A DNA stretch of 64,000 nucleotides from a virus (Duplodnaviria > Caudoviricetes), in IMG/VR virus record IMGVR_UViG_3300042691_038938; one strand, written 5' to 3'. This document shows positions 1,276-44,231 of this stretch, piece after piece. A program made the position numbers and the translations under genes. Each line of letters starts with the position of its first letter. The first letter of the stretch is position 1. Under the pieces are notes generated by a model that was not told where the DNA came from, searched no databases, and worked only from the letters and a program-made list of their open reading frames with translations.

Positions 1276-1767
1276 ATGGGAAAATACATCAAGCTATTTG
1301 AGGACTATGAAAACGAACTAAAGAATTCGGACGAAGAGACCTCTCACAACTGGACCGACATTCGTGATGCCGTCCAGATGAGACTGCCCTTCGTGATAAT
1401 AGTCTTCAAGAACTCTGATTCATACCTATCTGCGTTGGACTCTGAACTGATCGGTGGAGACTACATCAAGCAAAAAGCCCTAATGAGTAAGGACGGAACG
1501 CTTGTTAAGTACCCTTCGATCTTCATGGTTGTCCAGGACGACGAGACCTTTAAGAATAAGATACCAAAGATATTCGATGCATTTAAGACTAAGGTGATCT
1601 TTTTGGGTAAAAAGGGAGACGACCAGATTGACTGTTATTACTCAGATGGATCTAACGTACAAGCAGGTAATGAGATAGTGTCCTCCTTAGGAAAGGATGA
1701 GATGGACAACAACGACCACTTTGAGATAGGATCAACTAATTACATGTTTGTTGACTTCGTCGGATAA
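1276..1767 (+). CDS. Hypothetical protein with CTS-like N-terminus
   Basis: MGKYIKLFEDYENE. Confidence 0.75.
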   Translation: MGKYIKLFEDYENELKNSDEETSHNWTDIRDAVQMRLPFVIIVFKNSDSYLSALDSELIGGDYIKQKALMSKDGTLVKYPSIFMVVQDDETFKNKIPKIFDAFKTKVIFLGKKGDDQIDCYYSDGSNVQAGNEIVSSLGKDEMDNNDHFEIGSTNYMFVDFVG

Positions 1768-1813
1768 ACCTAGCTCTCATTTTGAGTATAACATAAGATA
1801 AAGTCAAGACTCG

Positions 1814-2248
1814 ATGAACGAAGAAACCAAGCAAAAGATCTCCGCTAAATTTCAGGAACGACGTGCTGATATCTCAAAAGAGATCTATGCTAACATAGAA
1901 AAGCTCTCCAACCTAAAGACTCTAAAGGAGGCTCAGGTCAACATGCTCTCCCTACGTCAGCGACTGCTTGAGGACAATCACACTTTGCTGGAACACATCA
2001 CGATATTGCGTAAGAAATATCGAGAAGAACGAGCGGTCGAGCTTGAGAACGTTTCTAGAAACCTGCAGCTCAGGTATCAGGCAAACGAGAAGACTGTCGT
2101 GATTGACGGTCGTACTTCTGCGACTAAAGAATCTCTTGAAATGTTTGAGACCCAAGTCTCCTTCTTCAATGAGTCGATCAAGACCATCGATAACATCATC
2201 TTCGGGATCAAGACGAGACTTGATATAGAAAAGACCTTAGGTCTATAA
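1814..2248 (+). CDS. uvsY: Recombination mediator UvsY-like
   Basis: Helical 144 aa directly before UvsW; C-terminus FFNESIKTIDNIIFGIK resembles the UvsY C-terminal signature. Confidence 0.6.
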   Translation: MNEETKQKISAKFQERRADISKEIYANIEKLSNLKTLKEAQVNMLSLRQRLLEDNHTLLEHITILRKKYREERAVELENVSRNLQLRYQANEKTVVIDGRTSATKESLEMFETQVSFFNESIKTIDNIIFGIKTRLDIEKTLGL

Positions 2249-2258
2249 AATCTTCATT

Positions 2259-3833
2259 GTGTTAAAGTTTAAGCTCACACCCGACCGTAAATTCATTAAG
2301 CTTGTAGATTTTAATCTCAATATGGAAAGGACTGCGCTCTTTAATTTCTTTAAGAAGAAATCGAAGAAGGCTGCATTCAATGTGCTTGTTGATCGTGGCA
2401 TCTGGGACGGAATGGATCCATTCATCACTAAGAACGGAGAGATCGCAGTTGGTTTATGGAAGGAAATCTATAATTTTTCTGAAAGGAGCGGTTTTGAGTG
2501 TGAGATCGAGGGAGCAGAAGGTTTTGTGAATAAGAACCTAGATAGGGACAAGTATTTAGGATATGTCAAGAACTTATTAGACGGAATAGTCGACGAACGC
2601 GGCAACCCAATCATTCCTCGAGACTATCAGGTAGAAGGAGCATTTAGAGCAATAAAGTATAAGTTCTGTACTCAAGAGTTGGCGACTTCTGCTGGAAAGA
2701 CTCTGATCTTCTATATCTATAACTCATTCCTAAGAGACGGCGGCAAGATCAGTAAGGAGAAAAAGTCACTCATTATTGTGCCGAACATCTCACTAGTCGG
2801 TCAGACTGCCGAAAAGTTCATCATGTACGCCAAGCCTGGAAAGGAGTGGAATGTCTGTTCGATTGGAGGTAAGGATAAGTTCACTCAGGAAAGATTCGAT
2901 CAAGCAGAGATAGTGATATCCACATATCAGAGCTTAGTGAACCTGGATCCTAACCTGTTCAAATCATTCTCAGTCGTGCAAGTGGATGAAGTTCACAAGT
3001 CAAAGGGTAATTCCATTCGGGACATACTGCTCTCTTGTACTAATTGGGAATATCGGTTGGGTCTTTCAGGAACGGTGAAATTAGACGAGCAATTCTCAGA
3101 CTTTTTCAGAGTTCAAGAGAACGTTGGACCACTAGTGATGGTGCTCTCAGCAAAACATCTCATCGATAATGGTTATTCACCTAACATCAAGATCAAGATG
3201 GTGGAGGTGATGTATGATACGACAGACCCTCAGATCCAGAAATACTGGCACCTAAAGTCTACCGGCAAGGACATGTACAAGAATCCCAAGGATTTCGGTA
3301 GGGACATGTTGGCAATCGAAAAGGGAATCATCTTTGAGAGCAAGGAAAGATTAGATTTCATTAGCGATCTAGTAAGAAAGTTTGAAAAGAACTCTCTCAT
3401 ACTCTTTTCAGACGTAAAGAACGGCTATGGCAAACTGATCCAGTCAAAGTTACTTGAGTGGAATCCGGATACTTTTTACATCGACGGTGAGGTAGACTCA
3501 CTTGATCGAGACAAGTTTAAGGATATATTGGAATCTAAGGACGGAGTGGTGATAGTAGCGTCGTATGGAACCTTTGCTACTGGAATCGATTCCAAGAACC
3601 TGCACCACATCATACTCGCAGAGTCAACTAAGGCCGAGGTTACTCTTCGACAAGCGATAGGCCGAGGTATGCGAAAGCTCGCGGAAAAGACTAATGTGAT
3701 GGTTTGGGATCTAGTCGATCAGCTAGATGGATATTCAGTAAAGCATTCAAAGGTAAGAAAGGAGATCTATCAAGAACAGAAGTTTGAGATATCTAAGAGT
3801 CAAGTAGACTTAACAAAAAAGCGATCTGAGTAG
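2259..3833 (+). CDS. uvsW: SF2 helicase UvsW
   Basis: PRDYQ, LATSAGKT (I), VDEVH (II), GLSGT (III), SYGTFATGID (V), QAIGRGMR (VI). Confidence 0.9.
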   Translation: MLKFKLTPDRKFIKLVDFNLNMERTALFNFFKKKSKKAAFNVLVDRGIWDGMDPFITKNGEIAVGLWKEIYNFSERSGFECEIEGAEGFVNKNLDRDKYLGYVKNLLDGIVDERGNPIIPRDYQVEGAFRAIKYKFCTQELATSAGKTLIFYIYNSFLRDGGKISKEKKSLIIVPNISLVGQTAEKFIMYAKPGKEWNVCSIGGKDKFTQERFDQAEIVISTYQSLVNLDPNLFKSFSVVQVDEVHKSKGNSIRDILLSCTNWEYRLGLSGTVKLDEQFSDFFRVQENVGPLVMVLSAKHLIDNGYSPNIKIKMVEVMYDTTDPQIQKYWHLKSTGKDMYKNPKDFGRDMLAIEKGIIFESKERLDFISDLVRKFEKNSLILFSDVKNGYGKLIQSKLLEWNPDTFYIDGEVDSLDRDKFKDILESKDGVVIVASYGTFATGIDSKNLHHIILAESTKAEVTLRQAIGRGMRKLAEKTNVMVWDLVDQLDGYSVKHSKVRKEIYQEQKFEISKSQVDLTKKRSE

Positions 3834-3863
3834 ATCGCTTTTCACATCTATTGAAAACTAAGA

Positions 3864-4205
3864 TCAGTAGTTACTCATGTCCCAATTAGGTTCATCTTCG
3901 CCAGTCTCAGGATTTCTTAAAAGGTCTAGCGCGTGTTCTAAACCTGCCTTTATATCCTCAATTGAATTATAAGAAGACATTCCACTAACAAACATTTTAG
4001 CTAGCTTACGATCTCCGCTTAATTCTGTAAACAACATCTCTAATTGAGTTTGCTCTTCTGGAGTAAGCTCATCATATTGAGCCTTTTGTCCCCTTCCTCC
4101 AACTAGTTCAGATCTAAGTCGAGTTGATTTACTCTCTGGCTCTGAGCCATAATAGTATCCTTCATTTATGAATCGACCGAAAGGTTTTACATGATTTCTT
4201 TTCAT
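3864..4205 (-). CDS. Hypothetical protein with CTS-like N-terminus
   Basis: MKRNHVKPFGRFINE. Confidence 0.75.
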   Translation of the reverse strand: MKRNHVKPFGRFINEGYYYGSEPESKSTRLRSELVGGRGQKAQYDELTPEEQTQLEMLFTELSGDRKLAKMFVSGMSSYNSIEDIKAGLEHALDLLRNPETGEDEPNWDMSNY

Positions 4206-8320: not shown

Positions 8321-8626
8321 ATGAAAAGAAGAATTTTATCGCTTAGAGACTATCGTCTTTATGAGTCTATCGATGAAAACGTTGACTTAAACATTGATAC
8401 TGCTATCCTAGATGAGCTAGTTGAACTCGTTGGATCAGAAGAGGACGTTGAAGAGGCTGCAAAAGCTGCTTTTGAGGACTTATCGGCTGCCGCTAAATCT
8501 AATCAAGTTGAAATGACGGAAGGCGACGTTCCTGAAAAGCTAGCGATGGCTGCATTACTAGTAAAACTTGTTGAAATGGGAAAACTCGATCCAACTAATG
8601 CTGATAAGCTCATGGAAAAAGTATAA
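8321..8626 (+). CDS. Acidic hypothetical protein with CTS-like N-terminus
   Basis: MKRRILSLRDYRLYE. Confidence 0.75.
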   Translation: MKRRILSLRDYRLYESIDENVDLNIDTAILDELVELVGSEEDVEEAAKAAFEDLSAAAKSNQVEMTEGDVPEKLAMAALLVKLVEMGKLDPTNADKLMEKV

Positions 8627-9843: not shown

Positions 9844-11562
9844 ATGGCAGGATTTTTAGACACAAATGGAAGAAGAGCAGGAAGCGCACTAGCCGGACTC
9901 AGTAAGTTCGGAACTCGACATGAGGATCTTCTTCTTAGAAACTCACAGGCAATAGGATTCATTGAGAGTCAGCTCCAGGCCAGATCAAACAAGATGAGTG
10001 CAAACGACGAACTCTTAAAGTTTTCAATGGCTATTTCTGATACGACATCTCAGCTTCGAACCAAGGCGATCGCCTTCTTTCAACTGGATTATGTTGTGAA
10101 GAGGGAACGACTTAGAGACGTCGCAGCAAACGGCGAGATCGAATTCATTCTTGAGACTATTGTGGATGACATGATCGTGTACGATGATGAGGGCCGATTC
10201 ATATATCCTAAGGACTTGACAGGCAAGATGCTTTATCGAGGAAACACTAAGGAAGAACGTTTAAACTTTCAGGAAGGAGTACTTAATAAGTATAGAGACA
10301 ATTTTGAGAAGATCTCAACTGCTTGGGGATTTAGTGAAGGAATATCTGCATGGCAGTATGCCTTTCAATTCCTAGTCGAAGGACACCTTTCTTTTGAGAT
10401 CATCTACGACGATTTAGACAAACCTAAAGAAGTCATAGGATTCAAAGAATTGGATCCTGCCAGCATTGCTCCACAGTTACAGAAGGATACTAATGGTAAA
10501 GTATTTCTTCAGTGGTTACAATACGACCCAGCTTCAGGTTCTACTCGAGTCCTAAACGATTCACAGGTGATCTATATCTCTTATGCAAACCACTTTAGGA
10601 CCAAGAGAGTCTCCTTTGTTGAGCGACTGATCAGATCATTCAATCTATTAAGAATCATCGAGCACAGTAAAGTTATTTGGCACGTGATGAATGCGCCGAT
10701 TCGCTTGACAACATCAGTTCCTATCGGAAGTAAGAGCTTTCAAAAGGGCCAAGAAGACGTTCGCGAGTTCCTAAACATGTTTAAGGAAGACATTTACTTT
10801 AATGGTGACACTGGAGAGCTTCAAGTTGACGGTAAACCTAATATTCTATTCTATAAGAACTACATCACACCAGTCAACGATCAGCAGCAACAGGTAAAGA
10901 TCGATGTTCTTCAGACTCCTGGACCAAACCTTTCCGGTTCAGAACTTCTTAATTACTTTTATAAGAAATTAAAGATGGACTCCAAGATACCTTACTCTCG
11001 TTGGGAAGGTCAGTCAGGTATGGGTGCATTTACTCTTAATGCTGAGGGTATTACTAGGGAGGAAGTTAGATATCAAAAATTCGTGAATCGATTAAGATCA
11101 GCTTTCTCTGAGCTCATGATCAAGCCATGGTACTTACAGATGTGTTTAGATTTTCCTGAGCTAGCGGATGACTATAAGTTCAACAATGCGATAGGCATAA
11201 CCTACAATAACGATAACGTCTTTGAAGAGATGAAGAAGAACGATATTGAGGCTAAGCGAATCGCATCGTTTACATCTAAGAAAGGAATCTTGAAGGACGA
11301 CGGTACGCCATTCTTCTCCACTCAATACTTGATTAGAGAAGAATTAAAGATGACTGAACCTGAGATTGAAGCTAATCAAAAATGGTTTGACCAAGAGATT
11401 AAGGAAGAGGCTGAAGCAGCAGCAGCCGCTCCACCTGCAGGAGGAGCTCCTCCACCAGCCGGAGGAGGAGGTGCAGCAGCCGCAGCAGGCGGAGCCGCTG
11501 CTGAAGGCGGAGGTTCTGAAGTAGTTGAGGGAGGCGAATCAAAAGGAGCAGGCCAACTTTAA
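9844..11562 (+). CDS. Portal vertex protein (T4 gp20-like)
   Basis: FLVEGHLSFE, YFYKKLKMDSKIPYSR, ITREEVRYQKFVNRLR; Ala/Gly/Pro tail. Confidence 0.9.
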   Translation: MAGFLDTNGRRAGSALAGLSKFGTRHEDLLLRNSQAIGFIESQLQARSNKMSANDELLKFSMAISDTTSQLRTKAIAFFQLDYVVKRERLRDVAANGEIEFILETIVDDMIVYDDEGRFIYPKDLTGKMLYRGNTKEERLNFQEGVLNKYRDNFEKISTAWGFSEGISAWQYAFQFLVEGHLSFEIIYDDLDKPKEVIGFKELDPASIAPQLQKDTNGKVFLQWLQYDPASGSTRVLNDSQVIYISYANHFRTKRVSFVERLIRSFNLLRIIEHSKVIWHVMNAPIRLTTSVPIGSKSFQKGQEDVREFLNMFKEDIYFNGDTGELQVDGKPNILFYKNYITPVNDQQQQVKIDVLQTPGPNLSGSELLNYFYKKLKMDSKIPYSRWEGQSGMGAFTLNAEGITREEVRYQKFVNRLRSAFSELMIKPWYLQMCLDFPELADDYKFNNAIGITYNNDNVFEEMKKNDIEAKRIASFTSKKGILKDDGTPFFSTQYLIREELKMTEPEIEANQKWFDQEIKEEAEAAAAAPPAGGAPPPAGGGGAAAAAGGAAAEGGGSEVVEGGESKGAGQL

Positions 11563-12372: not shown

Positions 12373-13107
12373 TTACTGTCTTGTTAAATACATCCAGTCG
12401 GCAGTGTTTTCACCCTTCATCATGGTGTTGACTGCTTCCATTTCTTTTTCTGCGGTTGTGACTATATTCTGATAATTCACAGTCACTCCTCCAGGAAGAG
12501 TATAATTAAAGGTCTGAAGCATGTGAGCAAGCCTCACTTTTGCGTGTGCTCTAACGTATCGTTGGAACATCTCATCCTCAAAAAGCTTGTCCTGTTCAAG
12601 TTTCTTGAAAACTCGAAGAACTGCATTTGTTTTAGGAGTTCTTCCGATCACTCCCAATAGTTTAGTGTTCTTGTTATAATCGTATGCAATCGTGTCTAGC
12701 ATCATAGCTTTAGTCAAGTCTAGGAAAGAGAACATTACCGTTCTGTACATGATGCTCTCTCCAATAAAAGGAGTCAAGAATATCTCAGAACCTATGAATT
12801 TCTGTTCAGCAAAGTCACGGTCGATCGTTGCAAAGATAGATCCTCCTTTTGCTTCCTTAAAGTCAACTACGAACTGTACACAGTCAGGAAGTTGAATCTG
12901 TCGTAGCTTCTTAAAGGTCGCATTATTAAAGAGGTCAAGAGGTAACATTAAGTATCTGCTCTCAACTGCATGTCTCCAGTTATCCCAAAAGAATCTAGAA
13001 TCATTTAGAATGATACGTTTAATCTCCTTTTCAGGAAGACCGTATGGTAATGCTCCTGAGAAAGTGATCTCATCATTTATGTCCTGTATGAGCTGGGCTT
13101 CCGTCAT
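12373..13107 (-). CDS. Neck protein (T4 gp13-like)
   Basis: YVRAHAK...LPGGVTVN...AEKEME C-terminal gp13 signature. Confidence 0.7.
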   Translation of the reverse strand: MTEAQLIQDINDEITFSGALPYGLPEKEIKRIILNDSRFFWDNWRHAVESRYLMLPLDLFNNATFKKLRQIQLPDCVQFVVDFKEAKGGSIFATIDRDFAEQKFIGSEIFLTPFIGESIMYRTVMFSFLDLTKAMMLDTIAYDYNKNTKLLGVIGRTPKTNAVLRVFKKLEQDKLFEDEMFQRYVRAHAKVRLAHMLQTFNYTLPGGVTVNYQNIVTTAEKEMEAVNTMMKGENTADWMYLTRQ

Positions 13108-13112: not shown

Positions 13113-13556
13113 TTATTGATTTTTACCTGTTCCGCTTCCCTTCTCGTCGCTAAATCTAACGCTAGACTTATCGATTGAGAGGTTGAAGTCTTTGTCTCCC
13201 ATTGAGCGACCTAACGCTCTTAGGTTTTTCTTAGCGACGACATTATCCTGCTTAGCTGCACGACCAGTAGAATTCCTCATCACTTGATCTATGGCCTGTT
13301 GCTTGATATTTTTCTTCCAATCGCTATGAAAGATCATGTTCATCGCTCTAGTGATATCGACTTCCTGTATGTCGCCGTTATATCGATTTGGATTTCTTGC
13401 AGCCTTTTCATTCGCGAGCTCTCTGGCTATAGCCATAATCTGAGAATAAAGTCCAGCCAACGCGCCTTGTACCATGCCCTTAAAATTAGTAGGGTACACC
13501 ACCTCCTTAGTAGCTTCATTGATGAATTGATTATATGACTTTATCTTTCTCTCCAT
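13113..13556 (-). CDS. Hypothetical protein with CTS-like N-terminus
   Basis: MERKIKSYNQFINE. Confidence 0.75.
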   Translation of the reverse strand: MERKIKSYNQFINEATKEVVYPTNFKGMVQGALAGLYSQIMAIARELANEKAARNPNRYNGDIQEVDITRAMNMIFHSDWKKNIKQQAIDQVMRNSTGRAAKQDNVVAKKNLRALGRSMGDKDFNLSIDKSSVRFSDEKGSGTGKNQ

Positions 13557-13870
13557 TATGCGGTCGGCGTAGCAGGTTGAGGAACTGCTTCTGCTGCTTT
13601 TTGTGCGGCTGCTTGAGCAGCTTGAGTTGCAGCTTGCTTCTTCTTTTGTTCTTCAGCTAATACTTTTTTGCGATTCTCAATATCCCTTTCCCAAGTGTTT
13701 ATTTGGTTCTTATACTGCTGAATCTTTGTGCTAAGGTCAATCAACGTAGGGTCAGTAAGAGCAGCGTCTTCCTCCTTTACCATTTGAGGATTCGCACCAG
13801 CTTCTACTTCCTTAGCTGCCTTGTCTGCCGCGTTTTGAAAACTCTTAAAGCTCTTTATGTATGATGACAT
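13556..13870 (-). CDS. Ala/Gln-rich coiled-coil protein with CTS-like N-terminus
   Basis: MSSYIKSFKSFQN. Confidence 0.75.
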   Translation of the reverse strand: MSSYIKSFKSFQNAADKAAKEVEAGANPQMVKEEDAALTDPTLIDLSTKIQQYKNQINTWERDIENRKKVLAEEQKKKQAATQAAQAAAQKAAEAVPQPATPTA

Positions 13871-14158: not shown

Positions 14159-14614
14159 TTATGCTGGAAAGTTAAGATCACTTGCAGGCTGGTCTAGAGA
14201 AAAATCAGCAGGTTGCGGTTCTACTTGCTTAGAGAAAGTAATATCCGTGTTATCGTCGATTGTAGGCTCCTCTGCACCAGTAGTCATGGCCAAGATCTCT
14301 TCCTTGTTCTCCTCTACGAATTTCTCAAGTCCCATGCAAACTAATGGATCGATCTTTTTACATCTTTCCATAAGCTCCTTAACTGTAAGATTCATCACAT
14401 CAGCCTCAGGCAAAGCCGGCTGAGAATCAGAAAAATTTGGCATCTCTTCCATTGAAGTAGCAGCAGGCTGTGGAACTTCCATTGGTATGTCCATTCCGCT
14501 TTGTGGTTGGATTGGAGCAGGCGCTGGCATTCCTTGTGCAGGCTGCATTTGCTGTGTTGGCATTTGCTGAACGTCATCTGCCTCGTAAAGTCTTTTTATT
14601 GAATTGTACCTCAT
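14159..14614 (-). CDS. Pro/Gln-rich hypothetical protein
   Basis: MRYNSIKRLYE start; low-complexity QP segment. Confidence 0.75.
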   Translation of the reverse strand: MRYNSIKRLYEADDVQQMPTQQMQPAQGMPAPAPIQPQSGMDIPMEVPQPAATSMEEMPNFSDSQPALPEADVMNLTVKELMERCKKIDPLVCMGLEKFVEENKEEILAMTTGAEEPTIDDNTDITFSKQVEPQPADFSLDQPASDLNFPA

Positions 14615-14934: not shown

Positions 14935-15408
14935 TTATCTTTTCCCATTCAAGTCAACCATGTACTTACCCTTAGTGATTGCATTCTTACCTATGATACA
15001 TGGAAATTTCATATTGCCTCTATCCGTAAGAGACACCTGAACCCTAATCTCGTCATTCCCTATCTTAAGCATAGTCCTAATTCGGTAGCGGTCCTCAGAC
15101 TTGCCTGAAGAATTCTTGACCTTTACTTTATCAAATTTTGAGAATTCTAGACGATTAGATGGAGATTTTATCCAAAATGAAAGAACCCCATTTTTAACTT
15201 TAATGTCGTTTGCGTCGATTGAAGTTCCATCTGCTCCAGTATCAATCTTAGCTTTAATGCTAGACACTTTAAGCTCAGGAAAAGATACTTTTTCAGTGGA
15301 CCCTAATGATCTTCGAGGATTTGAACCATAGTAATCCCAAGCTCCTGGGTTCTGATGGATCTCTGATGAAGTTATGAACTCCTTAAAACTCTCTACTAGC
15401 CTTTTCAT
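14935..15408 (-). CDS. Retropepsin-like aspartic protease (RimK-associated family) with CTS-like N-terminus
   Basis: AKIDTGADGTS, LTDRGNMKFPCIIG; MKRLVESFKEFI. Confidence 0.8.
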   Translation of the reverse strand: MKRLVESFKEFITSSEIHQNPGAWDYYGSNPRRSLGSTEKVSFPELKVSSIKAKIDTGADGTSIDANDIKVKNGVLSFWIKSPSNRLEFSKFDKVKVKNSSGKSEDRYRIRTMLKIGNDEIRVQVSLTDRGNMKFPCIIGKNAITKGKYMVDLNGKR

Positions 15409-19405: not shown

Positions 19406-20146
19406 TTAATCAGAATAGATTTTAGAATAGAGATCAGACATTAAGTCTATCATCTCTTCTATCGTACCTTCCCTTCTTAGTTCCTTGAAGACTAAATTCT
19501 CGACTGAGAACTCTCCTCCTGAAGCAAGACCTGACTTCCGGTCAGCTAATACCTTCCTTTTGAGTCTCTCAACATACTCATACAGGATCTTAGCTTCCAT
19601 TCCGGAGATAGACTTTGCTCTCTTCTTCATCATCTCTACTTCTGCCTGAATCACTCTCTTCTTTTCAGAAACGTCCTTTTGATCGATCTGTGGAGGATTG
19701 TATTGTGGAACTATTATCCACTTTCCTTTAAGAAGAGAATAGAGACCTGAAGCGGTGTGTTGTTCGTCTTTGTGTTGTACATAGCATTCCACATCATGTC
19801 CTCTAAGGACTACTGGATGCCGTTGGTTCCACATAAATCTCTGACCATCCAATGCCTTTCTTACTAAATCGATGTTTGAGTCGACTTGTGAAAAATCAAC
19901 TATTAAGTGAACATCTAGGTCAGAGTCACGATTCCAGTTATAGTTAGCCAACGAGCCAGTCAGCTGTACGTCAATGATCGGAACATCGAGCTTTAAGGAT
20001 TCCCAAAAGTCCTTGGCTATCTGTAAGAGAGTCTTTCTGATCTCAGGCTTCATTTGATTTTCCTCCCATATCTTTGGACAGAGATCCTTATGATACTCAA
20101 CCTTTTCGTTGATCCACTCGCTAAATTTTCTAGCTCGATTTTTCAA
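19406..20146 (-). CDS. Pol-beta superfamily nucleotidyltransferase with CTS-like N-terminus
   Basis: LTGSLANYNWNRDSDLDVH (GS...DxD), third carboxylate in HDVECY; (M)KNRARKFSEWINE; TTG start. Confidence 0.8.
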   Translation of the reverse strand: MKNRARKFSEWINEKVEYHKDLCPKIWEENQMKPEIRKTLLQIAKDFWESLKLDVPIIDVQLTGSLANYNWNRDSDLDVHLIVDFSQVDSNIDLVRKALDGQRFMWNQRHPVVLRGHDVECYVQHKDEQHTASGLYSLLKGKWIIVPQYNPPQIDQKDVSEKKRVIQAEVEMMKKRAKSISGMEAKILYEYVERLKRKVLADRKSGLASGGEFSVENLVFKELRREGTIEEMIDLMSDLYSKIYSD

Positions 20147-20194: not shown

Positions 20195-20200
20195 ATGAAT

Positions 20201-26034: not shown

Positions 26035-27714
26035 GTGATCAAGGATTTTAAGACATTTGTCAATGAGGCACTAACAGTAAGGTCGAGTCTGACCGGAGTC
26101 AAAGACACTCACTTTGAAGAGAGAGCAAAGCTTCGATTAAAAGGATTAAAGATAGTAAATTTTCTAGACGATTCAGGAAAGAATGTTGATGTAGATCCTA
26201 AGGTAAAATCAGCGAGCACAAGATTCTTTCAAGAAGTTTTCTTTCACCTAGCTGATCCAGAAAAGAGTAAGATATTTGATGAGGTTGACGTTCCTTTAGG
26301 AATGATTGGACTCATTAGAATGGGAAAACCAGTAGTAGTTCTTCCTAACGGCAAAAAGGTCAAGCCTGTGTTTGAAGTCTATGAAAGGACTGACCAGGGC
26401 AAGAAGATAATGAGGACTGGCCTCTACTTCTGGATATTCACAATAGGTTCGACTGTTCGTACCATAAAGCTATATACGTTAGACGGCAGCAACCAGTCTG
26501 AGAGAAACACGATCATCAATAAGTCAATAGATCACTTACGGTTTAATAAAGAGGCTGAACTTGCTAGGATATCTAGAGTGTTAAATGTGAGAATGGAAAA
26601 TCCGGAAGACTTGAAACAAAAGCACAAAGTTGTTTTAAAGCCGGCTGGCATAGATGAAGTAACATTTGACCTTAGTCTGCCTGCATCAACTGAACAACAG
26701 CTAACCGACTTTATCGCTGGAAGCACAGTCACTCGACAGGAACAAGTCTATATCGCTCCTGAGAGAGGCACTACTGATTTTACTTTAGAGACTGTTCCCA
26801 AACAAATGAACATCACCCCAAACAAGGTGTGGATTCTAGAGAGAAACGAGAAGCACAATACTTGGGGAGCAATACCCATTGAAGATTCTCAACTAGTGAA
26901 GAGAGGAGGGGACAATGAGATAGCTATGAAGATCGGAAAGAAATGGGTACACTGGTTAGACGAACCTAGATTCAATCCTCCTGTTCCTACTAACGAAAGA
27001 TTTATCAGAAAGGGAGACACTATCACACTAGCTAAGCAGTTAGGAAGCGGCCAGTGGCTCGCTAACACAGGAACTATTCGAGAGATCTCAATAGATCCAA
27101 AGAGCGCTTATCCATATGCCAAGACTGCGGGATGGGATAAGACTGAAATAATTCCTGCGGATCTTGCAGAGAGAATGTTTAAGGATTATCGATTAGCCAA
27201 TGAGAGCAGGTTTGTGATGAGCTTTAACGAATGGATAGATCACACCACTCCATTAAGCACCCGTTTGAATGAGGAAATAGTGATTGATAAAGAGATACCG
27301 GAAATGGATCAGTTCTTAGAGATAGTGTGTAATCCAGACGGCTCGCTTAAGTATCCCGAGCTTTTCACAAGATTGCAAGGAGGTAATGACAACCCTAAGC
27401 TTAGAGAACAGATCAAGAAAATGTATCTAGACACAAGTACTAGAAAAAACAAGAAGGCCAAATATTCAAAAGAGGCAAGGACGGTGATAGAAATGGTTTG
27501 GGAACTGACTAAAATAAACACTGATTCGGAAATAGACATTGACAAAATTATTCCTGAAACTATACTTGATCCAACTGAAAAGCAAGCTGATGGAACATAT
27601 CCGACTGACTACAAGTTCTTCGTTTTTACTGATCTAAATTCAAAAGCGATCGATTACTTGACTGGAGAAAGAAGCGGCATTGCCACAGGTTTTATGGGAC
27701 TCATGGCTAGATAA
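26035..27714 (+). CDS. Large hypothetical protein with N-terminal and internal CTS-like motifs
   Basis: (M)IKDFKTFVNE; ANESRFVMSFNEW; GTG start. Confidence 0.75.
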   Translation: MIKDFKTFVNEALTVRSSLTGVKDTHFEERAKLRLKGLKIVNFLDDSGKNVDVDPKVKSASTRFFQEVFFHLADPEKSKIFDEVDVPLGMIGLIRMGKPVVVLPNGKKVKPVFEVYERTDQGKKIMRTGLYFWIFTIGSTVRTIKLYTLDGSNQSERNTIINKSIDHLRFNKEAELARISRVLNVRMENPEDLKQKHKVVLKPAGIDEVTFDLSLPASTEQQLTDFIAGSTVTRQEQVYIAPERGTTDFTLETVPKQMNITPNKVWILERNEKHNTWGAIPIEDSQLVKRGGDNEIAMKIGKKWVHWLDEPRFNPPVPTNERFIRKGDTITLAKQLGSGQWLANTGTIREISIDPKSAYPYAKTAGWDKTEIIPADLAERMFKDYRLANESRFVMSFNEWIDHTTPLSTRLNEEIVIDKEIPEMDQFLEIVCNPDGSLKYPELFTRLQGGNDNPKLREQIKKMYLDTSTRKNKKAKYSKEARTVIEMVWELTKINTDSEIDIDKIIPETILDPTEKQADGTYPTDYKFFVFTDLNSKAIDYLTGERSGIATGFMGLMAR

Positions 27715-27716: not shown

Positions 27717-28037
27717 CTAGTCTCTAAACTTTCCTGGAAAGATCTGTCTCCATTCATGACCCTTCGGTATGAATTTCTTCTTGACTCCAAAGATCTTGTC
27801 CTCTCCTGGATCACAAGCATTCTCACCATTCCACTTGAATCCGTTGCGACATGCCCAATTCTTCATGAATATGGTAAAGGGTTGACCTGTCACAAAGGGA
27901 AACCTTACTCCAGACTCGTTATCAATTTCCTCAATCTTTCCGTGAGTCATCTTAATTGTAATAGTTCTTCCCTGTCTCGATGTAAGGACTATGACTTCTT
28001 CTCTCATCCAGCTTTCGTATAGCACAACGTGTTTCAC
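27717..28037 (-). CDS. Hypothetical protein with CTS-like N-terminus
   Basis: MKHVVLYESWMRE. Confidence 0.7.
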   Translation of the reverse strand: MKHVVLYESWMREEVIVLTSRQGRTITIKMTHGKIEEIDNESGVRFPFVTGQPFTIFMKNWACRNGFKWNGENACDPGEDKIFGVKKKFIPKGHEWRQIFPGKFRD

Positions 28038-28039: not shown

Positions 28040-28741
28040 TTAAATCTTTATTTTATATGCAGTCGTTTTTGCCACTCCCTTTAGGTTTCTTAGAGGTTCG
28101 CAAGAGTGTAACTGTAATTCTGAAAGAAGTCTACCGCTTCTTCTACGTTTACCCTCATAACATCTCTGCTGATAGTCAATGATCTCTAATTTACGACTCT
28201 TCTTAGAAACTAGATCCTCTATCCTTTTCTCCTCCTCTTTAGGTAGAGCTTCAGTAAAGCTAAAGGTCACGTTTCCAGGTTCAGAAACAGTCGACTCCAT
28301 TCGAGAAGCAGTGTTTACCGTGTTACCGAAGAAGTCCCATAGTTTTTTACCTTGGATGTCTGTCTGCTTTTTATATAGAGGTCCCCAGCAGATCCCAAGT
28401 CGAATCGTCATGTTCTTATCCTTAATCTTGATAGGGTTATTCTTAAGGTCCTCCTGTATCTCCATGCCTGCCTCTACCGCTCTTAGTAAGGAGTCCTTGC
28501 CCTCGAAGCTGACCATGTAACTATCACCGATAGTCTTTACGATCATGCCCTTGAACTTTGTGACCACCTTTGTCATTCGCTTATTGTGCTCTTCAAGAGC
28601 ATTGAACATGCCAGACTGATGTAGCTTCCAAAGCTTAGAGCTTGACTTAACGTCAGTGAACAGGATCGCCTGCTCCTTCTCTTCAAGTTTCTTTAGAGAG
28701 TCAATGCTCTCCCAGATAGGATAAGATACTAAGTATTTCAT
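28040..28741 (-). CDS. Class III adenylate cyclase with CTS-like N-terminus
   Basis: ILFTDVKSS, VKTIGDSYM, IRLGICWGP, WDFFGNTVNTASRME. Confidence 0.9.
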   Translation of the reverse strand: MKYLVSYPIWESIDSLKKLEEKEQAILFTDVKSSSKLWKLHQSGMFNALEEHNKRMTKVVTKFKGMIVKTIGDSYMVSFEGKDSLLRAVEAGMEIQEDLKNNPIKIKDKNMTIRLGICWGPLYKKQTDIQGKKLWDFFGNTVNTASRMESTVSEPGNVTFSFTEALPKEEEKRIEDLVSKKSRKLEIIDYQQRCYEGKRRRSGRLLSELQLHSCEPLRNLKGVAKTTAYKIKI

Positions 28742-32141: not shown

Positions 32142-33608
32142 TTAGCTATTGAGTCTAAGCCAAGCGCTAAAGGACACGTTTAGTCCCTCTCCCAAGTACT
32201 TCTTACGTAATCGATCAGCTTTATCAATGTCTCCTTTCAAATAGGCATCAATGATCGCATCTTGTATCTCGTCCTGGCTCATCTCGCTTTCAACATCCGG
32301 CTCAACATCCGGCTCAACCTCTTGAGTCGGCATCTCGTATCGAGGTTCCTCCTCTTTAGATTGGTCACCATATTTAGACTGTGCTTCAAGGTTGGCTAGT
32401 GCTTCTTCAATTATGGGATAAAATAATCTTTCGATACCTGATTTATCATTCATCAAGATTGCATATACAATCTTAAGCATTTCCTTAGGGTCATCTTTAC
32501 CAGTCGTTGCAAGCATTCCAAATACCATCCAATAGAGACGTTGTTCCTCTGCCGCGAGGTCATTCCATATCGAATCGACATTCTCTCCTGTTTCTCGGTC
32601 CATTTCGCGTCGATAGCTAGAAAACCTCTCTTCAACTTCCGGATGAGAGTTGATTGCTTTACGAAAATCGTTCTGCATGTCAGTGCCGTACTTAAACTCT
32701 TCAGCTTCATCAAGTAGAGTATCAGTGTTCATTATCACCTGTTCTGCCTCATCTTCTGAAAGGTGCTCAGTGCTTAGCTGTACTGGAAGAACGTAGACTG
32801 CTTTGATCGCTTCATGGATAAGAACTGAGAGATCAACTCCCCTAGCAAATATCTTCATCTCAAGGTCTGCCATTAACTCTTCAGCTGAGTCGCTTTCAGT
32901 AAAGTCCTTTCCTTTTTCAAGATCGTCTAACATCTTCTTAGCTGCGTCTTCGTCTGGCTTTTTATCTCCAAAATCAATCATATTGACCCCAGCTCCAGAC
33001 ATCTTCAAGTAGGTCTTTATCTGGTTATCTGGTAATCTCCAATCATTGAATTGAGCCACTGCTGAGATCTTATTCAAGAGCTTAAGATATTCTTCACCGT
33101 CGGTTTTTCCTAGTATTGTCTTGATTCCAGACTTGAACATAGGTAGATTTAGAATCGCTTTAGAATTCAATCCCATTCCCTGCTGAAGCGTCTTTAAGAT
33201 CTTTCTCTTGTGGATCTCATTAATTATCTTACGATTAACGATTTCCTCGACGTTAGGCTGTTCAGGTTCCTCTGGAGTCATTGATCCCATTGATCGTGCC
33301 TCATCACCTATCTTAAAATCGAATTCAACATCATCAAGCAGACCCTTGAATATGAATCTAAATGAAGAAACAGTCAGGTCAGATAACGCGTCCTCGTGCC
33401 CTGATTGAAGTGCTTTTGATTTGCCAATAAGCCCCATGAAATTACTAAGGTCTTCACGATTTTCCATGGCAAATCTTGCCATTTTAGGATCCTTTTCCGC
33501 TTTGACCTTCGCTAACCATGAAGGATCATTGGACTCTCCTTCTCCTGGAATTCCGATGTTTCCTCTAAGGGAAGCCTCATTGATATAGTCTTCGAAATTA
33601 TTTAACAT
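32142..33608 (-). CDS. Large acidic helical protein with CTS-like N-terminus
   Basis: MLNNFEDYINE; C-terminal EGLNVSFSAWLRLN. Confidence 0.75.
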   Translation of the reverse strand: MLNNFEDYINEASLRGNIGIPGEGESNDPSWLAKVKAEKDPKMARFAMENREDLSNFMGLIGKSKALQSGHEDALSDLTVSSFRFIFKGLLDDVEFDFKIGDEARSMGSMTPEEPEQPNVEEIVNRKIINEIHKRKILKTLQQGMGLNSKAILNLPMFKSGIKTILGKTDGEEYLKLLNKISAVAQFNDWRLPDNQIKTYLKMSGAGVNMIDFGDKKPDEDAAKKMLDDLEKGKDFTESDSAEELMADLEMKIFARGVDLSVLIHEAIKAVYVLPVQLSTEHLSEDEAEQVIMNTDTLLDEAEEFKYGTDMQNDFRKAINSHPEVEERFSSYRREMDRETGENVDSIWNDLAAEEQRLYWMVFGMLATTGKDDPKEMLKIVYAILMNDKSGIERLFYPIIEEALANLEAQSKYGDQSKEEEPRYEMPTQEVEPDVEPDVESEMSQDEIQDAIIDAYLKGDIDKADRLRKKYLGEGLNVSFSAWLRLNS

Positions 33609-33951: not shown

Positions 33952-35472
33952 ATGAGTCACTTACTTTCATTTAATTCTTTTACAGACCAACCTAGAATGG
34001 ACGAAAACATCCAGGCAGCGAAGGGATATCTTCTTAAAAGTTATTCTGACAAGATGAACGTTCCCATCTCTGAGATTCCCAAAGAGGAGCAGGGAGAGAT
34101 CTTACGTAATAATAAAGACTATCAAGCGATCCTAACGATGCTAAAGGGCAAGGACGGATACGTATATCCCTTTGTTCTTTTTAGGTTTGAGCATAACGTT
34201 CGAATGAATCAGTTGGCTAACCTTCTAGAGAAGATCAAGCAGTATTCTGCTGTGTTAAATACTCTGCCGATGCCGATCGAAGAGTATGCGAAACAGGCTC
34301 AAGTAAACGGAGTAGATAGTTTCGAGGCACTGATGGACGCATTTGACTCAATAGAAGTAAAGAAAAGGAGCCGATGGATCATTGACGACACTCCAGGAGA
34401 CCTGCGTCGCCGATTAAGAATGTTGAGTGACCGTGACCAGGACAGACTGATAAAGTCTGCAAAGATCATTGACGATATCGATGCTAAAGTCGGAAACTTC
34501 ATTGATGAGGAGACTGGCAGAGAGACGAATAATAAGATCAGTCTTCTTAAGAAAGTAAAGTCATTCGCAGATAAATCAGCTGAAGAATATTTAGAATGGG
34601 TGGAGAGCTTTGCGGATGGAGTCGCCTCATCAGATGTTGTATCAAAGATGGAACAGCTAAAGGATCTCATACCTGAAGCTGGACTACTCTACCTAAAGAA
34701 TGGGTACATGGTTCTAGGAATTCGTACTGAAAAGGCTCAAAAGGATCTTTGTTCCATCGCTAACTGGTGTATCAACCGTGGATCTTGGGGATCGTACGGT
34801 GGTCAAAAGGATCGTTTACAAATAAACATCTTTAACTTCAACAAGAAACCGACAGATCCTCTACACATCACTGGTACTACAGTGACTAAGGACAAGAGAG
34901 TCACCCATTCACACGATAAGAACGACTTAAGCATCATAAAATCAAATGATTTCAGACAGCACCTCTTGGGTCTAGGTTATCCTGAGGAACTTGCGACAGC
35001 AGTTGACTCTTCCATCATGCGGGAGGGACTCATCAAAGATATCGTTACTGGGTTCAACATGGACGCAAGCTCTCCTAGAGATCTATTAAAGACGATAGTG
35101 TTTGCGAGCTACGATCCTCGAATGAATCTTGAAGAGGATAAGTCAGTGATCGGTCCGATACTTGAGATAATCGATGAACGTGTTTCAGGAAACATCTCGC
35201 CACAGGAAACACAGTCTCTCTTCATGGAAAAGGGATGGTTATCTCCTTTTTCAGCGAAGCTATTCAACCTGCTCTTTCCCGACCTTTCTACTGATTTTAG
35301 AAATAGGATAGTGAGTAGAGCGAAGGAGATCTTTGGAGATCTTGAAGAGATCCTCGTTTATTTCGGAGCTTCAAAATATCCTGCAGTAGCCGGAGCAGTG
35401 AAGAGAAAACAAGAGATCCTAGACATACTTGAGAGAGGCGAATCGATTGAGAGAGATTCTCAAGAAAGATAA
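33952..35472 (+). CDS. Large hypothetical protein, CTS-like start, WCI motif
   Basis: MSHLLSFNSF; CSIANWCINRG. Confidence 0.75.
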   Translation: MSHLLSFNSFTDQPRMDENIQAAKGYLLKSYSDKMNVPISEIPKEEQGEILRNNKDYQAILTMLKGKDGYVYPFVLFRFEHNVRMNQLANLLEKIKQYSAVLNTLPMPIEEYAKQAQVNGVDSFEALMDAFDSIEVKKRSRWIIDDTPGDLRRRLRMLSDRDQDRLIKSAKIIDDIDAKVGNFIDEETGRETNNKISLLKKVKSFADKSAEEYLEWVESFADGVASSDVVSKMEQLKDLIPEAGLLYLKNGYMVLGIRTEKAQKDLCSIANWCINRGSWGSYGGQKDRLQINIFNFNKKPTDPLHITGTTVTKDKRVTHSHDKNDLSIIKSNDFRQHLLGLGYPEELATAVDSSIMREGLIKDIVTGFNMDASSPRDLLKTIVFASYDPRMNLEEDKSVIGPILEIIDERVSGNISPQETQSLFMEKGWLSPFSAKLFNLLFPDLSTDFRNRIVSRAKEIFGDLEEILVYFGASKYPAVAGAVKRKQEILDILERGESIERDSQER

Positions 35473-36014
35473 CCCTCTATTTCTCCTTGAGTCTTTTTGA
35501 TCGGTGGAAACTTCTTTGGATGGGTGTAAGCTATAAAGATCTGTCTAATGAATGCACCCTTTCCTTGAAAAGTAAAGTCAAGCACTCGTTTGGATTCTAA
35601 ACCAAGGTCGCCGACCTCTGCCGCAAGGTTAGAGATCTTTTTAACTGCTTGTCTTTCAGCACGTTGAACTGATCCGTTTATTCCATCCTTACGACCAGCT
35701 CCTCCTCTACTAGTCAGACCCACCCAGGCCTTACCATCCTTGCTCTCCTCAATGGTGACTTCCCAAGAAACCTTCCAATTAGTATCGTCCATGTTGATCT
35801 TAATTGAGGTGATCTCTGGATTTGCTCCAAGCTCCTTGTAAAACTTTGCCAGTGCTTCATTCACGAGAGTGTTCATCTTGCCGCCGAAGCCATCCTTCTT
35901 TCTGGACTGAAAGGAATGCATGGCATCATAGTCTCCCCTAGGTGGTGAGAACTCTCCCTTCACAACTCTCTTTTTCTGTAGAGAAAACTGTTCGTAAAGT
36001 TTTAAGTACTTCAT
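35460..36014 (-). CDS. Hypothetical protein with CTS-like N-terminus
   Basis: MKYLKLYEQF; GATAAATA at 36021-36028. Confidence 0.75.
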   Translation of the reverse strand: MKYLKLYEQFSLQKKRVVKGEFSPPRGDYDAMHSFQSRKKDGFGGKMNTLVNEALAKFYKELGANPEITSIKINMDDTNWKVSWEVTIEESKDGKAWVGLTSRGGAGRKDGINGSVQRAERQAVKKISNLAAEVGDLGLESKRVLDFTFQGKGAFIRQIFIAYTHPKKFPPIKKTQGEIEGYLS

Positions 36015-41600: not shown

Positions 41601-41610
41601 ATACGAAGAG

Positions 41611-42158: not shown

Positions 42159-42533
42159 TTAATATCTTTCCCCTCTATATCTGCGCTCGTTCTCAGCCTG
42201 GACGTCAGCCATGCGCTTCCACATCTCCTCTGTTCTTCTTTCAGAGTCCTCTCTGAATCTACCCTTTCTCTGCCACAGGCTTTCATCATCCATAAAACTC
42301 CTCTTTAGTCTGTCCAATTCCAATAAGAGCTGGTTTGCAGGCTCAGCATAGTTCTCATTGATATATCTAGAGTCGACTCCCTCAATCCTTAGAGCTCTTA
42401 GGTGATCTACTAGAGCAGAAAGATCGTTTAGTGGTTCCTGAAAGACTTCCATTGAATGTAATAGGTCCTTATATGTCTCGTTGATTCGACTCTCGTTCAG
42501 GTGATTTTCAAATCCTTTTACGTAATTCTTCAT
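42159..42533 (-). CDS. Hypothetical protein with CTS-like N-terminus
   Basis: MKNYVKGFENHLNESRINE; GATAAATA 42553-42560. Confidence 0.75.
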   Translation of the reverse strand: MKNYVKGFENHLNESRINETYKDLLHSMEVFQEPLNDLSALVDHLRALRIEGVDSRYINENYAEPANQLLLELDRLKRSFMDDESLWQRKGRFREDSERRTEEMWKRMADVQAENERRYRGERY

Positions 42534-42644
42534 GATGGTTCTTTATTTTTTTTATTTATCTACTACGGAGTCCAGCTACTAATACTAAATAACTAGAGAT
42601 AAAGATAAAAGAAAAGATTGGTAGGCGACAGAGACCCAAACCCT

Positions 42645-43109
42645 TTAAAAAGAACCGCTAAACCTTGATATGCCGCTGCTGCTATAGCCGCCGCTAGTGT
42701 CTAGAGACTGGCTTCTTGAGCCTGAAGAGCGCATTTTTGGCATTCTCTCCCAATCCGCTTTAACCTCTCTAAAATAGTTTTCAACGAAATCATTGGCTCC
42801 TTGAACAAAACCGGTTAGATTAGAGTAGGGCTCAGTCTCCAATAGCTCAAGTAGGTTTTCCCTAGTTCCTTCTACTTTACCGGCATACCACGCATCCTTA
42901 AACGCGTCCAGGATCTCATCCTCACTGTACTGTGAAATATCGACCTTTAAAAAGTCTTCTTTAGTCGGTGAATCCAGGCGTTTGAGGTACCACAGATATG
43001 CGCTCGACGGTTTTTCCGGCTCCTGCTGTCTGCTTTTTTTCCAACCGAACCAGCTCTCGTCCAACCTAGATTGCGAAAAGGATTCAAACGTCTTGATATG
43101 CTTCTTCAT
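42645..43109 (-). CDS. Hypothetical protein with CTS-like N-terminus
   Basis: MKKHIKTFESFSQSRLDE; GATAAATA 43130-43137. Confidence 0.75.
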   Translation of the reverse strand: MKKHIKTFESFSQSRLDESWFGWKKSRQQEPEKPSSAYLWYLKRLDSPTKEDFLKVDISQYSEDEILDAFKDAWYAGKVEGTRENLLELLETEPYSNLTGFVQGANDFVENYFREVKADWERMPKMRSSGSRSQSLDTSGGYSSSGISRFSGSF

Positions 43110-43173
43110 GACTCTCTTCTATTTTTCTTTATTTATCTACTAACGCTGTTCTACTACGGAGTCCAGCACCCGA

Positions 43174-43749
43174 TCAATCGCGGTACCAATCACCTTCCTC
43201 GTCGCCCAGGGCCACCTCTGAATCAAATGACTTGAGCACCTGTACCAGGTCGTCGACAGTGAATATGTTGATCTCGCCGTTATAGATCCACGTGCCGTCA
43301 TAATCAAAGTAGCCATCGTCATCATCGTCATAAGCCGCGTCCTCATGATTCGCATATAGCGCCCTGATCTCGACCGTGCTCTCCACACCAAGTCCAATGA
43401 CTATCAGAGCAGGCTCATCATCAACGACCTGATACGACCAGTCGTTATAGTGAGTTTCAGGCAGGTCTAGAAGACCCGGCGCAACAGTCAGCTCAGCGGC
43501 CTCAAAGCTAGCATATCTCGTCTTCTTCACCCCAAGATACTTATCGGGCTCGGAATTACACAGAGCCTCAAGCTGAGAATAAAACTCGTCGGCCCAACCC
43601 TGTAGGTCAATCTCCTTGATCCCCTTTTCAAACTCTTGCTGGCTAATTAGCCCGAGCCCTAACAGTCGATTAAGGTGACGTTCGGTCTTTTCTCCGCTCT
43701 GTTGAGAGTCCTCGCTCTCCCATACTCTAGATGATTTGATATACTTCAT
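43174..43749 (-). CDS. Acidic protein with CTS-like N-terminus
   Basis: MKYIKSSRVWE; GATAAATA 43771-43778. Confidence 0.75.
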   Translation of the reverse strand: MKYIKSSRVWESEDSQQSGEKTERHLNRLLGLGLISQQEFEKGIKEIDLQGWADEFYSQLEALCNSEPDKYLGVKKTRYASFEAAELTVAPGLLDLPETHYNDWSYQVVDDEPALIVIGLGVESTVEIRALYANHEDAAYDDDDDGYFDYDGTWIYNGEINIFTVDDLVQVLKSFDSEVALGDEEGDWYRD

Positions 43750-43763
43750 GCCACGCTAGTTCT

Positions 43764-44231
43764 TTAGTTATATTTATCAGGTCTCCATACTGGCACGTTT
43801 TCAACTCCATCGGGTATCCTATAACGTTTAGAAAAATGGGGCAGCTCATGCACGATGGACCTAGCGTCAATGCTGTGACCCTTCCTGGAGAGCACGTTCT
43901 CTATGCACTGTTCCGGATCATTGCTAAACCAGATCTCTCTTAAATCGACTCCTTCCAACTCAGCTAGACCCTGCCTAAGCTTCTCCCCTAGACCGATAAG
44001 AGTATAATCCTCAAAGTAGGGAGAGGCCAAGATCACGTGCTCTCCACTCTGCAAGGCTGATACTATCTCTTCAACGCTAGCAGAATCGTCGAAGACTCTC
44101 CACTCAAGATCGCTATCACTAATGATCTCACGTATGAGATGACTCTTACCCGAACCAGGTAGACCGTGTATCCAGACCATTGAAACCTTCGATCTGTTCT
44201 CAAATAATGAATATGATACTATGTGCTTCAT
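43764..44231 (-). CDS. P-loop kinase (PNK/AAA_33-like) with CTS-like N-terminus
   Basis: WIHGLPGSGKS; MKHIVSYSLFE; TATAAATA 44254-44261. Confidence 0.7.
   Translation of the reverse strand: MKHIVSYSLFENRSKVSMVWIHGLPGSGKSHLIREIISDSDLEWRVFDDSASVEEIVSALQSGEHVILASPYFEDYTLIGLGEKLRQGLAELEGVDLREIWFSNDPEQCIENVLSRKGHSIDARSIVHELPHFSKRYRIPDGVENVPVWRPDKYN

Follow-up and report, generated by a model that had tools for sequence, protein, structure and literature searches.

A shared N-terminal peptide resembling the T4 capsid-targeting sequence on unrelated proteins of a large uncultured phage

What does it signify when proteins with nothing else in common begin with a similar short peptide? The question is raised by a stretch of 64,000 nucleotides from the IMG/VR virus record IMGVR_UViG_3300042691_038938 (Caudoviricetes), here called the window, in whose first 44.3 kb many open reading frames (ORFs) carry such a peptide, below called the tag. 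A preliminary description of the window had counted about 26 carriers, likened the peptide to the capsid-targeting sequence (CTS) of phage T4 and proposed that the carriers form an injected cargo proteome. In our analysis the most likely reading, with a probability that we put at roughly 0.6, is that the lineage has its own, greatly expanded version of the T4-type peptide for capsid targeting and processing, shared across a clade of uncultured jumbo phages and megaphages. Packaging and cleavage of the tagged proteins are predicted from the likeness to known systems, and their injection, with action before phage gene expression, might follow by analogy with T4. New relative to the T4 CTS are the number and kind of the tagged proteins, the conservation of the tag across the clade, and its pairing with a prohead protease fused to a repeat-bearing scaffold. 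No description of such a tag was found in full-text literature searches.

The tag and its statistical support

The consensus at the N-termini is M-[KR]-x-[ILV]-[KV]-x-[FY]-x-x-[FWY], recognized by eye in 24 of the 67 ORFs called within 1-44.3 kb; this set was chosen partly by eye, with the glutamate among the cues. The tag comprises 8-20 residues and ends with [ILV]-x-E, most commonly [IV]-N-E, and it occurs in two registers, aromatic-x-x-aromatic-[IV]-N-E and [ILV]-aromatic-E. All seven N-termini quoted in the preliminary description, those of the genes starting at 26035, 13556, 4205, 20146, 33608, 43109 and 36014, were found where and on the strand it had placed them, with a GTG start at 26035 and a TTG start at 20146.

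Three measures agree that the peptide is concentrated at N-termini. An 11-column matrix trained on N-termini, applied at a threshold of 14 bits or more, matched 18 of 1320 N-terminal windows vs 2 of 17163 internal ones; 17 of the 18 matches lie within 1-44.3 kb, and the eighteenth, 63337-63585, is dubious and begins 9 residues in. The strict rule [FYW]xx[FYW][ILVM]xE, set a priori from the determinants of the T4 CTS, was satisfied at 6 of 938 N-terminal vs 3 of 12674 internal positions (odds ratio 27, p = 7e-6), and at none of the N-termini of the 43 ORFs in 44.3-64 kb. A hidden Markov model (HMM) of the tag, calibrated on internal 26-residue segments as a control, was used to scan 110 N-termini of the window and found 11 at 6 bits or more, with about one false positive expected, and 16 at 4 bits or more, with 3.6 expected. 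The statistically solid tags thus number 11-18, and the earlier count of about 26, although it reflects a real shared peptide, is an upper bound, because the stricter matrix, rule and HMM all give fewer.

Paralogy as the source of the shared peptide was rejected: among the bodies of the 26 candidates (residue 23 onward), BLASTP detected no similarity at E < 0.01, as expected from the earlier statement that the carriers are unrelated. Pfam domains begin right behind the tag, at residue 22 in a class III cyclase, 35 in a retropepsin-like protease, near residue 28 in a nucleotidyltransferase-like protein and 18 in a P-loop protein. Among 115 homologues of the cyclase with a recognizable domain start, 84 are extended by a tag-like stretch of 18-56 residues and 24 have the catalytic domain at their very start; an AlphaFold2 (AF2) model of the window cyclase (overall confidence, pLDDT, 87) leaves residues 1-11 without structure (pLDDT < 50), with the fold starting from residue 20. 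Because the homologues occur with and without the extension, and the tag lies outside the modelled fold, the tag is a modular add-on.

No tag is carried by the helicase, PhoH, DNA polymerase B fragment or Toprim-like primase candidate that the window encodes, nor by the topoisomerases, glycan genes and tail/baseplate-region genes to its left. The preliminary description was right that neither replication genes nor the genes of the 46-64 kb array carry the peptide.

An ATAAATA box (ATAAATAATAAAAA), which resembles the T4 late promoter TATAAATA, is present within 60 nucleotides (nt) upstream of 18 of the 24 tagged genes vs 9 of the 43 untagged genes of the same region, mostly 13-34 nt upstream of the tagged ones. 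The other six tagged genes are located directly behind a gene on the same strand, in keeping with the earlier claim that most tagged genes follow a box or sit in an operon behind one. The same box precedes the protease-scaffold gene described below and two large tail/baseplate-region genes. It also precedes an endolysin-like gene of the GH19 family, which is untagged, unlike a second protein with a muralytic domain (23159-23836).

The prohead protease and the tag in related genomes

The window was extended using stretches of metagenome contigs with the same DNA, including a 96-kb contig of ENA walked leftwards (coordinates L010, L009 and L004 below). A gene run 24-28 kb left of the window encodes DnaJ, a 655-residue protease-scaffold protein and a major capsid protein of the Gp23 family. 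The 655-residue protein combines a Peptidase_S77 domain (PF03420, the family of the T4 prohead protease gp21) with a scaffold-like region. Residues H85 and S140 of T4 gp21, which we take to be catalytic, align with H80 and S135, both invariant across 12 homologues. Residues 294-447 form eleven tandem 14-residue repeats, nine of which fit the strict pattern (for example, SIGYSEYIAESL and YSEYIAE), and which the AF2 model, of low confidence (pLDDT 51), renders as one long helix. The repeats are retained in homologues of 81%, 35% and 31-36% identity and are weaker in LR756500.1. Conserved [IL]-N-E-S sites are located at the flanks of the protease domain and in the C-terminal region, with E186/S187 and E619 invariant. 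This architecture fits a scaffold that would be chopped into short peptides by its own protease, as T4 gp21 does to gp22, gp67 and gp68. A search with the protein yielded 37 related IMG/VR loci, and the fusion and the repeats extend to the uncultured phage genomes LR7565xx of 460-735 kb. The homologue in MaF61, a cultured T4-like phage of Flavobacterium, is 1404 amino acids (aa) long and has many L/M-N-E sites, but no aromatic repeats were seen in its scaffold.

The scan of the genome and its relatives with the tag HMM that the preliminary description had proposed revealed enrichment at N-termini in the window and in four related genomes, each given here with its G+C content (GC), the identity of its protease and the number of N-termini at 6 bits or more: G1 (176 kb, GC 37%, 81%, 20 of 209 with 1.5 expected), G005 (123 kb, GC 36%, 31%, 11 of 135 with 1.5 expected), G2 (374 kb, GC 50%, 35%, 11 of 489 with 2.9 expected) and LR756500.1 (first 400 of 462 kb, GC 24%, 30%, 34 of 524 with 4.9 expected). 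In MaF61 (GC 37%), taken as a negative control, 1 of 184 N-termini scored and there was no enrichment. The G1 orthologues, 40-80% identical, retain the tag with exchanges among F, Y and W, and the three more distant relatives carry it on other proteins; no orthologues of the tagged bodies were found in G2. At conserved tag positions synonymous codons are used freely (AAT and AAC 5:5, GAA and GAG 5:5). Judged from this codon variation and from the persistence of the tag at GC 24%, 36%, 37% and 50%, selection acts on the protein sequence of the tag and not on RNA.

Comparison with known systems and alternative explanations

In the T4 record, IPII and IPIII begin with MKTYQEFIAE, confirming the comparison from which the preliminary description started, and residues 59-65 of gp23 (FGSFLTE, followed by AE) fit the strict pattern, which places the match at what we take to be the gp23 maturation site, after E65; gp21, gp22, gp67 and gp68 of T4 contain no match to this pattern. 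According to a review, propeptides of 10-19 residues direct T4 proteins into the prohead core, and gp21 cleaves behind L/I-x-E; in the CTS of IPIII, targeting depends on residues 4 and 7 and processing on residues 8 and 10 (PMC9026906). The tag of 8-20 residues is, like the CTS, a short N-terminal peptide on otherwise unrelated proteins (24 candidates, restricted to N-termini). Two aromatics three apart, [FY]-x-x-[FWY], form the core of the matrix, and behind them come an aliphatic residue, a variable one and Glu, with exactly the spacing of Y4, F7, I8 and E10 in T4; the L/I-x-E end corresponds here to a wider set, [ILVMF]-x-E. As in T4, a gp21-family protease with the aligned catalytic residues, a T4-type portal and a Gp23 capsid protein are encoded. 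Thus the earlier idea of a T4-type peptide that a gp21-like protease removes has considerable indirect support: the encoded protease and the motif spacing stand, and cleavage itself is predicted by analogy.

There are also differences from T4. Counted from the Met, the aromatic pair comes 3-4 residues later than in the CTS, preceded by a basic [ILV]-K stretch, and Asn mostly occupies the position before the Glu. In 44 kb, about 11-24 proteins are tagged vs a handful in all of T4, and several of them are not small basic proteins but enzymes of 150-560 residues. The scaffold-like region compares with the T4 core proteins gp22, gp67 and gp68 in its numerous predicted [ILV]-x-E sites. Unlike them, it is fused to the protease and consists of regular 14-residue aromatic repeats, whose coarse pattern is that of the tag, and it has no detectable sequence homology to them. 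The giant phages related to phiKZ (phiKZ, 201phi2-1 and SPN3US) are similar in that many head-internal proteins, including enzymes, are processed after Glu by a diverged gp21-like protease, and some of these proteins are ejected into the host (PMC5694885, PMC9026906). Their propeptides, however, are mostly 80-130 residues long, with no short shared motif described, and are cut after S/A/G-x-E rather than L/I-x-E, neither of which applies to the tags here; their lineage also differs, with Pseudomonas and Salmonella as hosts.

If the tag is a T4-type targeting and processing peptide, the tagged proteins would be made late, together with the head proteins, and the peptide would bring them into the assembling prohead core, built by the gp21-type (S77) protease fused to a helical scaffold. 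The protease would cut after the Glu in the tag, as at the like sites in the eleven repeats of the scaffold, and free the cargo inside the capsid. Some of the cargo is probably core or DNA-associated protein, and the enzyme cargo (the cyclase, the nucleotidyltransferase, the retropepsin-like protease, the muralytic domain and the P-loop protein) may exit with the DNA on infection.

The tag could instead be a signal for prohead assembly and processing whose carriers are mostly accessories of the core or scaffold, or enzymes of the prohead or the late cell, that are degraded or retained rather than injected. Several tagged genes adjoin those of the portal and neck; in T4, the pieces into which core proteins are cut mostly leave the head (PMC9026906); and the tagged proteins of 16031-16696 and 18468-19379 contain internal sites and have a composition reminiscent of T4 core or internal peptides: the first is very acidic, like gp67, and the second is basic-tailed, so that the pair compares with gp67/gp68. 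At least these two look like candidate prohead-core or internal proteins rather than effectors, and because of them the term 'injected cargo proteome' claims more than follows from the tag alone. Nevertheless, full enzyme domains (cyclase, nucleotidyltransferase, muralytic) directly behind the tag fit cargo better than scaffold; T4 internal proteins (IPs) and Alt, which have such propeptides, are ejected into the host, and the change of the cargo set between relatives is like that of the IPs, which are poorly conserved among T4-like phages (PMC9026906). We consider this explanation unlikely on balance. An address or handling signal unrelated to the capsid, namely, recruitment of DnaJ or host DnaK, an anchor to a membrane or compartment, or a degron timing late proteins, might be suspected from the phage DnaJ gene directly upstream of the protease-scaffold gene and from the broadly chaperone-like character of the tag, a short hydrophobic/aromatic patch flanked by basic residues. 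It would leave unexplained the [ILV]-x-E ending, the T4-like aromatic spacing and the same pattern in the scaffold repeats, as well as the co-occurrence of the tag and the repeat-bearing protease-scaffold in five genomes and the absence of the tag from MaF61; no predicted transmembrane or signal-peptide character was seen in the tag sequences. We regard such a signal as improbable.

A constraint on translation initiation or mRNA at the 5' ends of late genes in a host lacking Shine-Dalgarno sequences, or chance combined with biased N-terminal composition, appears highly improbable and is largely refuted. MK... starts are common everywhere, and the upstream regions are A-rich with no evident Shine-Dalgarno sequence. 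Bacteroidetes usually lack such sequences as well (PMC9723584). The mRNA-level explanation was rejected given the free codon use, the same motif at conserved internal positions of two proteins, and the untagged MaF61, which has a Flavobacterium host and similar GC; it is also at odds with the retention of the peptide from 24% to 50% GC and with the GH19 endolysin-like and large tail/baseplate-region genes, which share the box and lack the tag.

Several points weigh against a T4-type targeting peptide. No cultured member of the clade and no proteome data were found. The strict T4-like rule is satisfied by only six tags, and many others are degenerate or have the Glu in a different register; the [ILVMF]-x-E ending at residues 8-20, present in 23 of 24 tags vs 22 of 86 other ORFs, is an inflated and partly circular figure, because Glu helped to select the tags. 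An HMM built from the scaffold repeats alone scored 2 bits or more at 2 of 110 N-termini vs 17 of 524 internal segments of the window. The strong form of the comparison, in which the tag is a copy of a scaffold repeat, was dropped for this reason, and the resemblance is limited to a coarse four-position pattern. A predicted complex of the scaffold repeats (residues 285-450) and a tagged protein's first 40 residues scored 0.00, which counts neither way. The box is assigned as a putative late promoter by analogy and by its position before structural genes, and passage through a tail tube would require cargo of 450-560 residues to unfold.

A bolder version is tentative, and we think it possible rather than probable: that an N-terminal 'zip code', an address imitating one unit of the scaffold repeat, defines the packaged proteome across an uncultured clade of jumbo phages and megaphages of the Bacteroidota type, including relatives of those phages whose genomes are the largest known, with dozens of fast-changing cargo proteins per genome, and that ready-made nucleotide-signalling enzymes among them (the class III cyclase and the nucleotidyltransferase) enter with the DNA and act on the host before phage transcription. 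Should the tag function like the T4 CTS, sequence would suffice to list the proteins inside the head, and possibly those injected, of an uncultured clade that is widespread in metagenomes, a task otherwise impossible without virions. Such a list would be a catalogue of candidate effectors of host takeover in the first minute or of anti-defence, most of them without a known family, though a cyclase and a nucleotidyltransferase are among them. The protease, the repeat scaffold and the matching tags would provide a simple and testable model for the recruitment of cargo to the prohead core, a question still unsettled for T4, and a short portable tag could help to load proteins into capsids of Bacteroidota phages.

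Genome context and individual genes

The window is part of a large phage genome in the T4 superfamily. Among phage records, those closest by portal identity (30-38%) are the Lak phages and the uncultured genomes LR7565xx, of 460-735 kb. Moraphages, large relatives of T4 and Lak from freshwater, have DnaJ/DnaK chaperone genes, and their hosts are predicted to be Bacteroidota (PMC12619734). With a DnaJ gene adjoining the protease and huge uncultured and Lak phages as closest records, the lineage studied here may be that of the moraphages; we assume a freshwater source for the metagenome contigs. The text of the moraphage paper does not contain the words 'N-terminal' or 'internal'.

Table 1. Features of the window and of the adjoining contig L010. 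A slash follows a glutamate of the tag or precedes the next residue; matrix, HMM and strict pattern are those described in the text; box, position of the ATAAATA box in nt relative to the start.
Position	Strand	Feature	Tag	Score or match	Box	Remarks
1276..1767	+	tagged ORF, 163 aa	MGKYIKLFE/DYENE...	matrix 22.7 bits	17 nt before upstream TTG (start in gene call)	G1 orthologue tag MTKYIKLYEDYQQD
3864..4205	-	tagged ORF, 113 aa	MKRNHVKPFGRFINE/G	strict pattern	-25	G1 orthologue MKNHVKKFGSFVNE
5735-7168	+	DNA_pol_B match		only middle of profile (positions 145-238 of 453)		apparently a split or very divergent polymerase; gene behind it overlaps by 8 nt, weak sub-threshold Toprim_2 match only
8321..8626	+	weak tag, by eye only, 101 aa	MKRRILSLRDYRLYE/S		-26	G1 orthologue MRRIMNLREYRVNE
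8712-9212	+	TnsA-like endonuclease N-terminal domain		Pfam E = 9e-15	promoter-like box	two genes upstream of portal
9844..11562	+	T4-type portal protein, untagged		Pfam Portal_T4, E = 7.7e-60		
12373..13107	-	gp13-like neck protein, untagged		PF26809 Phage_T4_gp13, precomputed match for identical gene on L004		no family at E <= 0.01 in our own Pfam scan
13113..13556	-	tagged ORF, 147 aa	MERKIKSYNQFINE/A	strict pattern; HMM 20.8 bits		G1 orthologue 80% identical, tag MERKIKTYHQYINE
13556..13870	-	tagged ORF, 104 aa	MSSYIKSFKSFQNA...	matrix 21.7 bits	-23	no Glu at usual place
14159..14614	-	weak tag, by eye, 151 aa, Q/P-rich	MRYNSIKRLYE/AD		-34	conserved in G1
14935..15408	-	tagged retropepsin-like protease (Zn_protease/RimB-like)	MKRLVESFKEFITS	PF05618 E = 3.7e-19; HMM 5.8 bits		
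16031..16696	-	very acidic protein	N-terminal MSGRVLNFFEF; internal LVKSFSRFLNE/S (residue 130)	internal tag, matrix 15.4 bits		both tags conserved in G1
18468..19379	-	protein with two tags	N-terminal MHKYFNFAKIFE/AE; internal GIMSFSQFVNE/A (residue 211)			Lys-rich tail of ~80 aa after internal FVNE/A site; both tags conserved in G1
19406..20146	-	tagged nucleotidyltransferase-like protein	MKNRARKFSEWINE/K	strict pattern; Pfam NTP_transf_2 21.8 bits (cut-off 21)		TTG start
20195..21127	+	tagged ORF, 310 aa	MNMKHVKSYSSINE/S	matrix 15.8 bits	-7	
23159..23836	-	tagged muralytic-domain protein	MKHILEYYNWVSLNE/G	PHROG 873 (endolysin) E = 1.1e-11, residues 30-108		
23838..25214	-	tagged ORF, by eye, 458 aa	MDFNYFISIFE/DS		-27	G1 orthologue ...FESFAIFEDS
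25373..25984	-	GH19 lysozyme/endolysin-like, untagged		Pfam Glyco_hydro_19 E = 2.8e-8	-25	
26035..27714	+	tagged ORF, 559 aa	MIKDFKTFVNE/A	strict pattern; HMM 17.5 bits		GTG start; G1 and G003 orthologues ~50% identical; G1 begins MIKDFQSFINE
27717..28037	-	tagged ORF, 106 aa	MKHVVLYE/SWMRE/E	strict pattern		G1 orthologue MKTYVQLFESWHRE
28040..28741	-	tagged class III adenylate/guanylate cyclase	MKYLVSYPIWE/S	Pfam Guanylate_cyc E = 9e-23		
29091-30014	-	MSFINWG module				
32142..33608	-	tagged ORF, 488 aa	MLNNFEDYINE/A	strict pattern; HMM 16.7 bits		
33598..33870	-	weak tag, by eye, 90 aa	MRKYIKSINE/R		-30	
33952..35472	+	tagged ORF, 506 aa	MSHLLSFNSFTDQPRMDE/N	matrix 17.7 bits	-34	
35460..36014	-	tagged ORF, 184 aa	MKYLKLYE/QF	matrix 17.8 bits	-13	
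39765-41417	-	MSFINWG module				
42159..42533	-	tagged ORF, 124 aa	MKNYVKGFENHLNE/S	matrix 19.1 bits	-26	
42645..43109	-	tagged ORF, 154 aa	MKKHIKTFESFSQSRLDE/S	HMM 11.3 bits	-27	
43174..43749	-	tagged ORF, 191 aa	MKYIKSSRVWE/SE	matrix 18.8 bits	-28	
43764..44231	-	tagged P-loop NTPase or kinase-like protein	MKHIVSYSLFE/N	Pfam AAA_33 26.8 bits, just below cut-off 27	-29	
L010:11053-13020		S77 protease-scaffold, 655 aa, about 24-26 kb left of the window		PF03420		
L010:13050-14717		Gp23-family major capsid protein				
L010:15173-16102	+	MSFINWG module				

Among the enzyme names of the preliminary description, the cyclase and the retropepsin-like protease are solid and the muralytic enzyme is supported by PHROG 873; the nucleotidyltransferase is marginal, and 'kinase' was too generous for a P-loop match below the cut-off. 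A sequence search of the PDB with the nucleotidyltransferase, muralytic and P-loop proteins returned no matches. The large tagged ORFs were assigned no function by comparison with Pfam and PHROGs. Of three of them searched in the ESM Atlas, two gave no result, the protein of 26035-27714 offering no lead in Pfam, PHROG or the ESM Atlas, and 33952-35472 matched only unnamed viral clusters.

The TnsA-like protein encoded near the portal gene may be a homing-type endonuclease. To the left of the window, between the head genes and the tail/baseplate-region genes (L009/L010, 12-24 kb left), there is an 11-kb run of sugar-modification genes, including NeuB, CMP-sugar transferase-like, Asn-synthase-like, PIG-L, sulfotransferase and GT2 genes, none of them tagged. 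At 44000-48000, the boundary between the tagged late region and an array of small genes, GC rises to 0.50-0.53 vs about 0.40 elsewhere; searches of the window for tRNA genes and Rfam families, this segment included, found none. Within the array, at 46-64 kb on the minus strand, nearly every small gene is preceded by a repeat element such as ACTTATAACTTAAAAAC(A/T)AAAGCAG, and none of these genes is tagged.

A second shared N-terminal module, of about 40 residues (MSFINWGxExxEQ..LR...Q.ALFEQA...QxQGG), is found on three otherwise different proteins. One carrier is encoded two genes downstream of the capsid gene, and one contains PKD, LRR and Laminin_G_3 domains, as decoration or fibre proteins exposed at the surface typically do; this module may anchor proteins to the capsid exterior.

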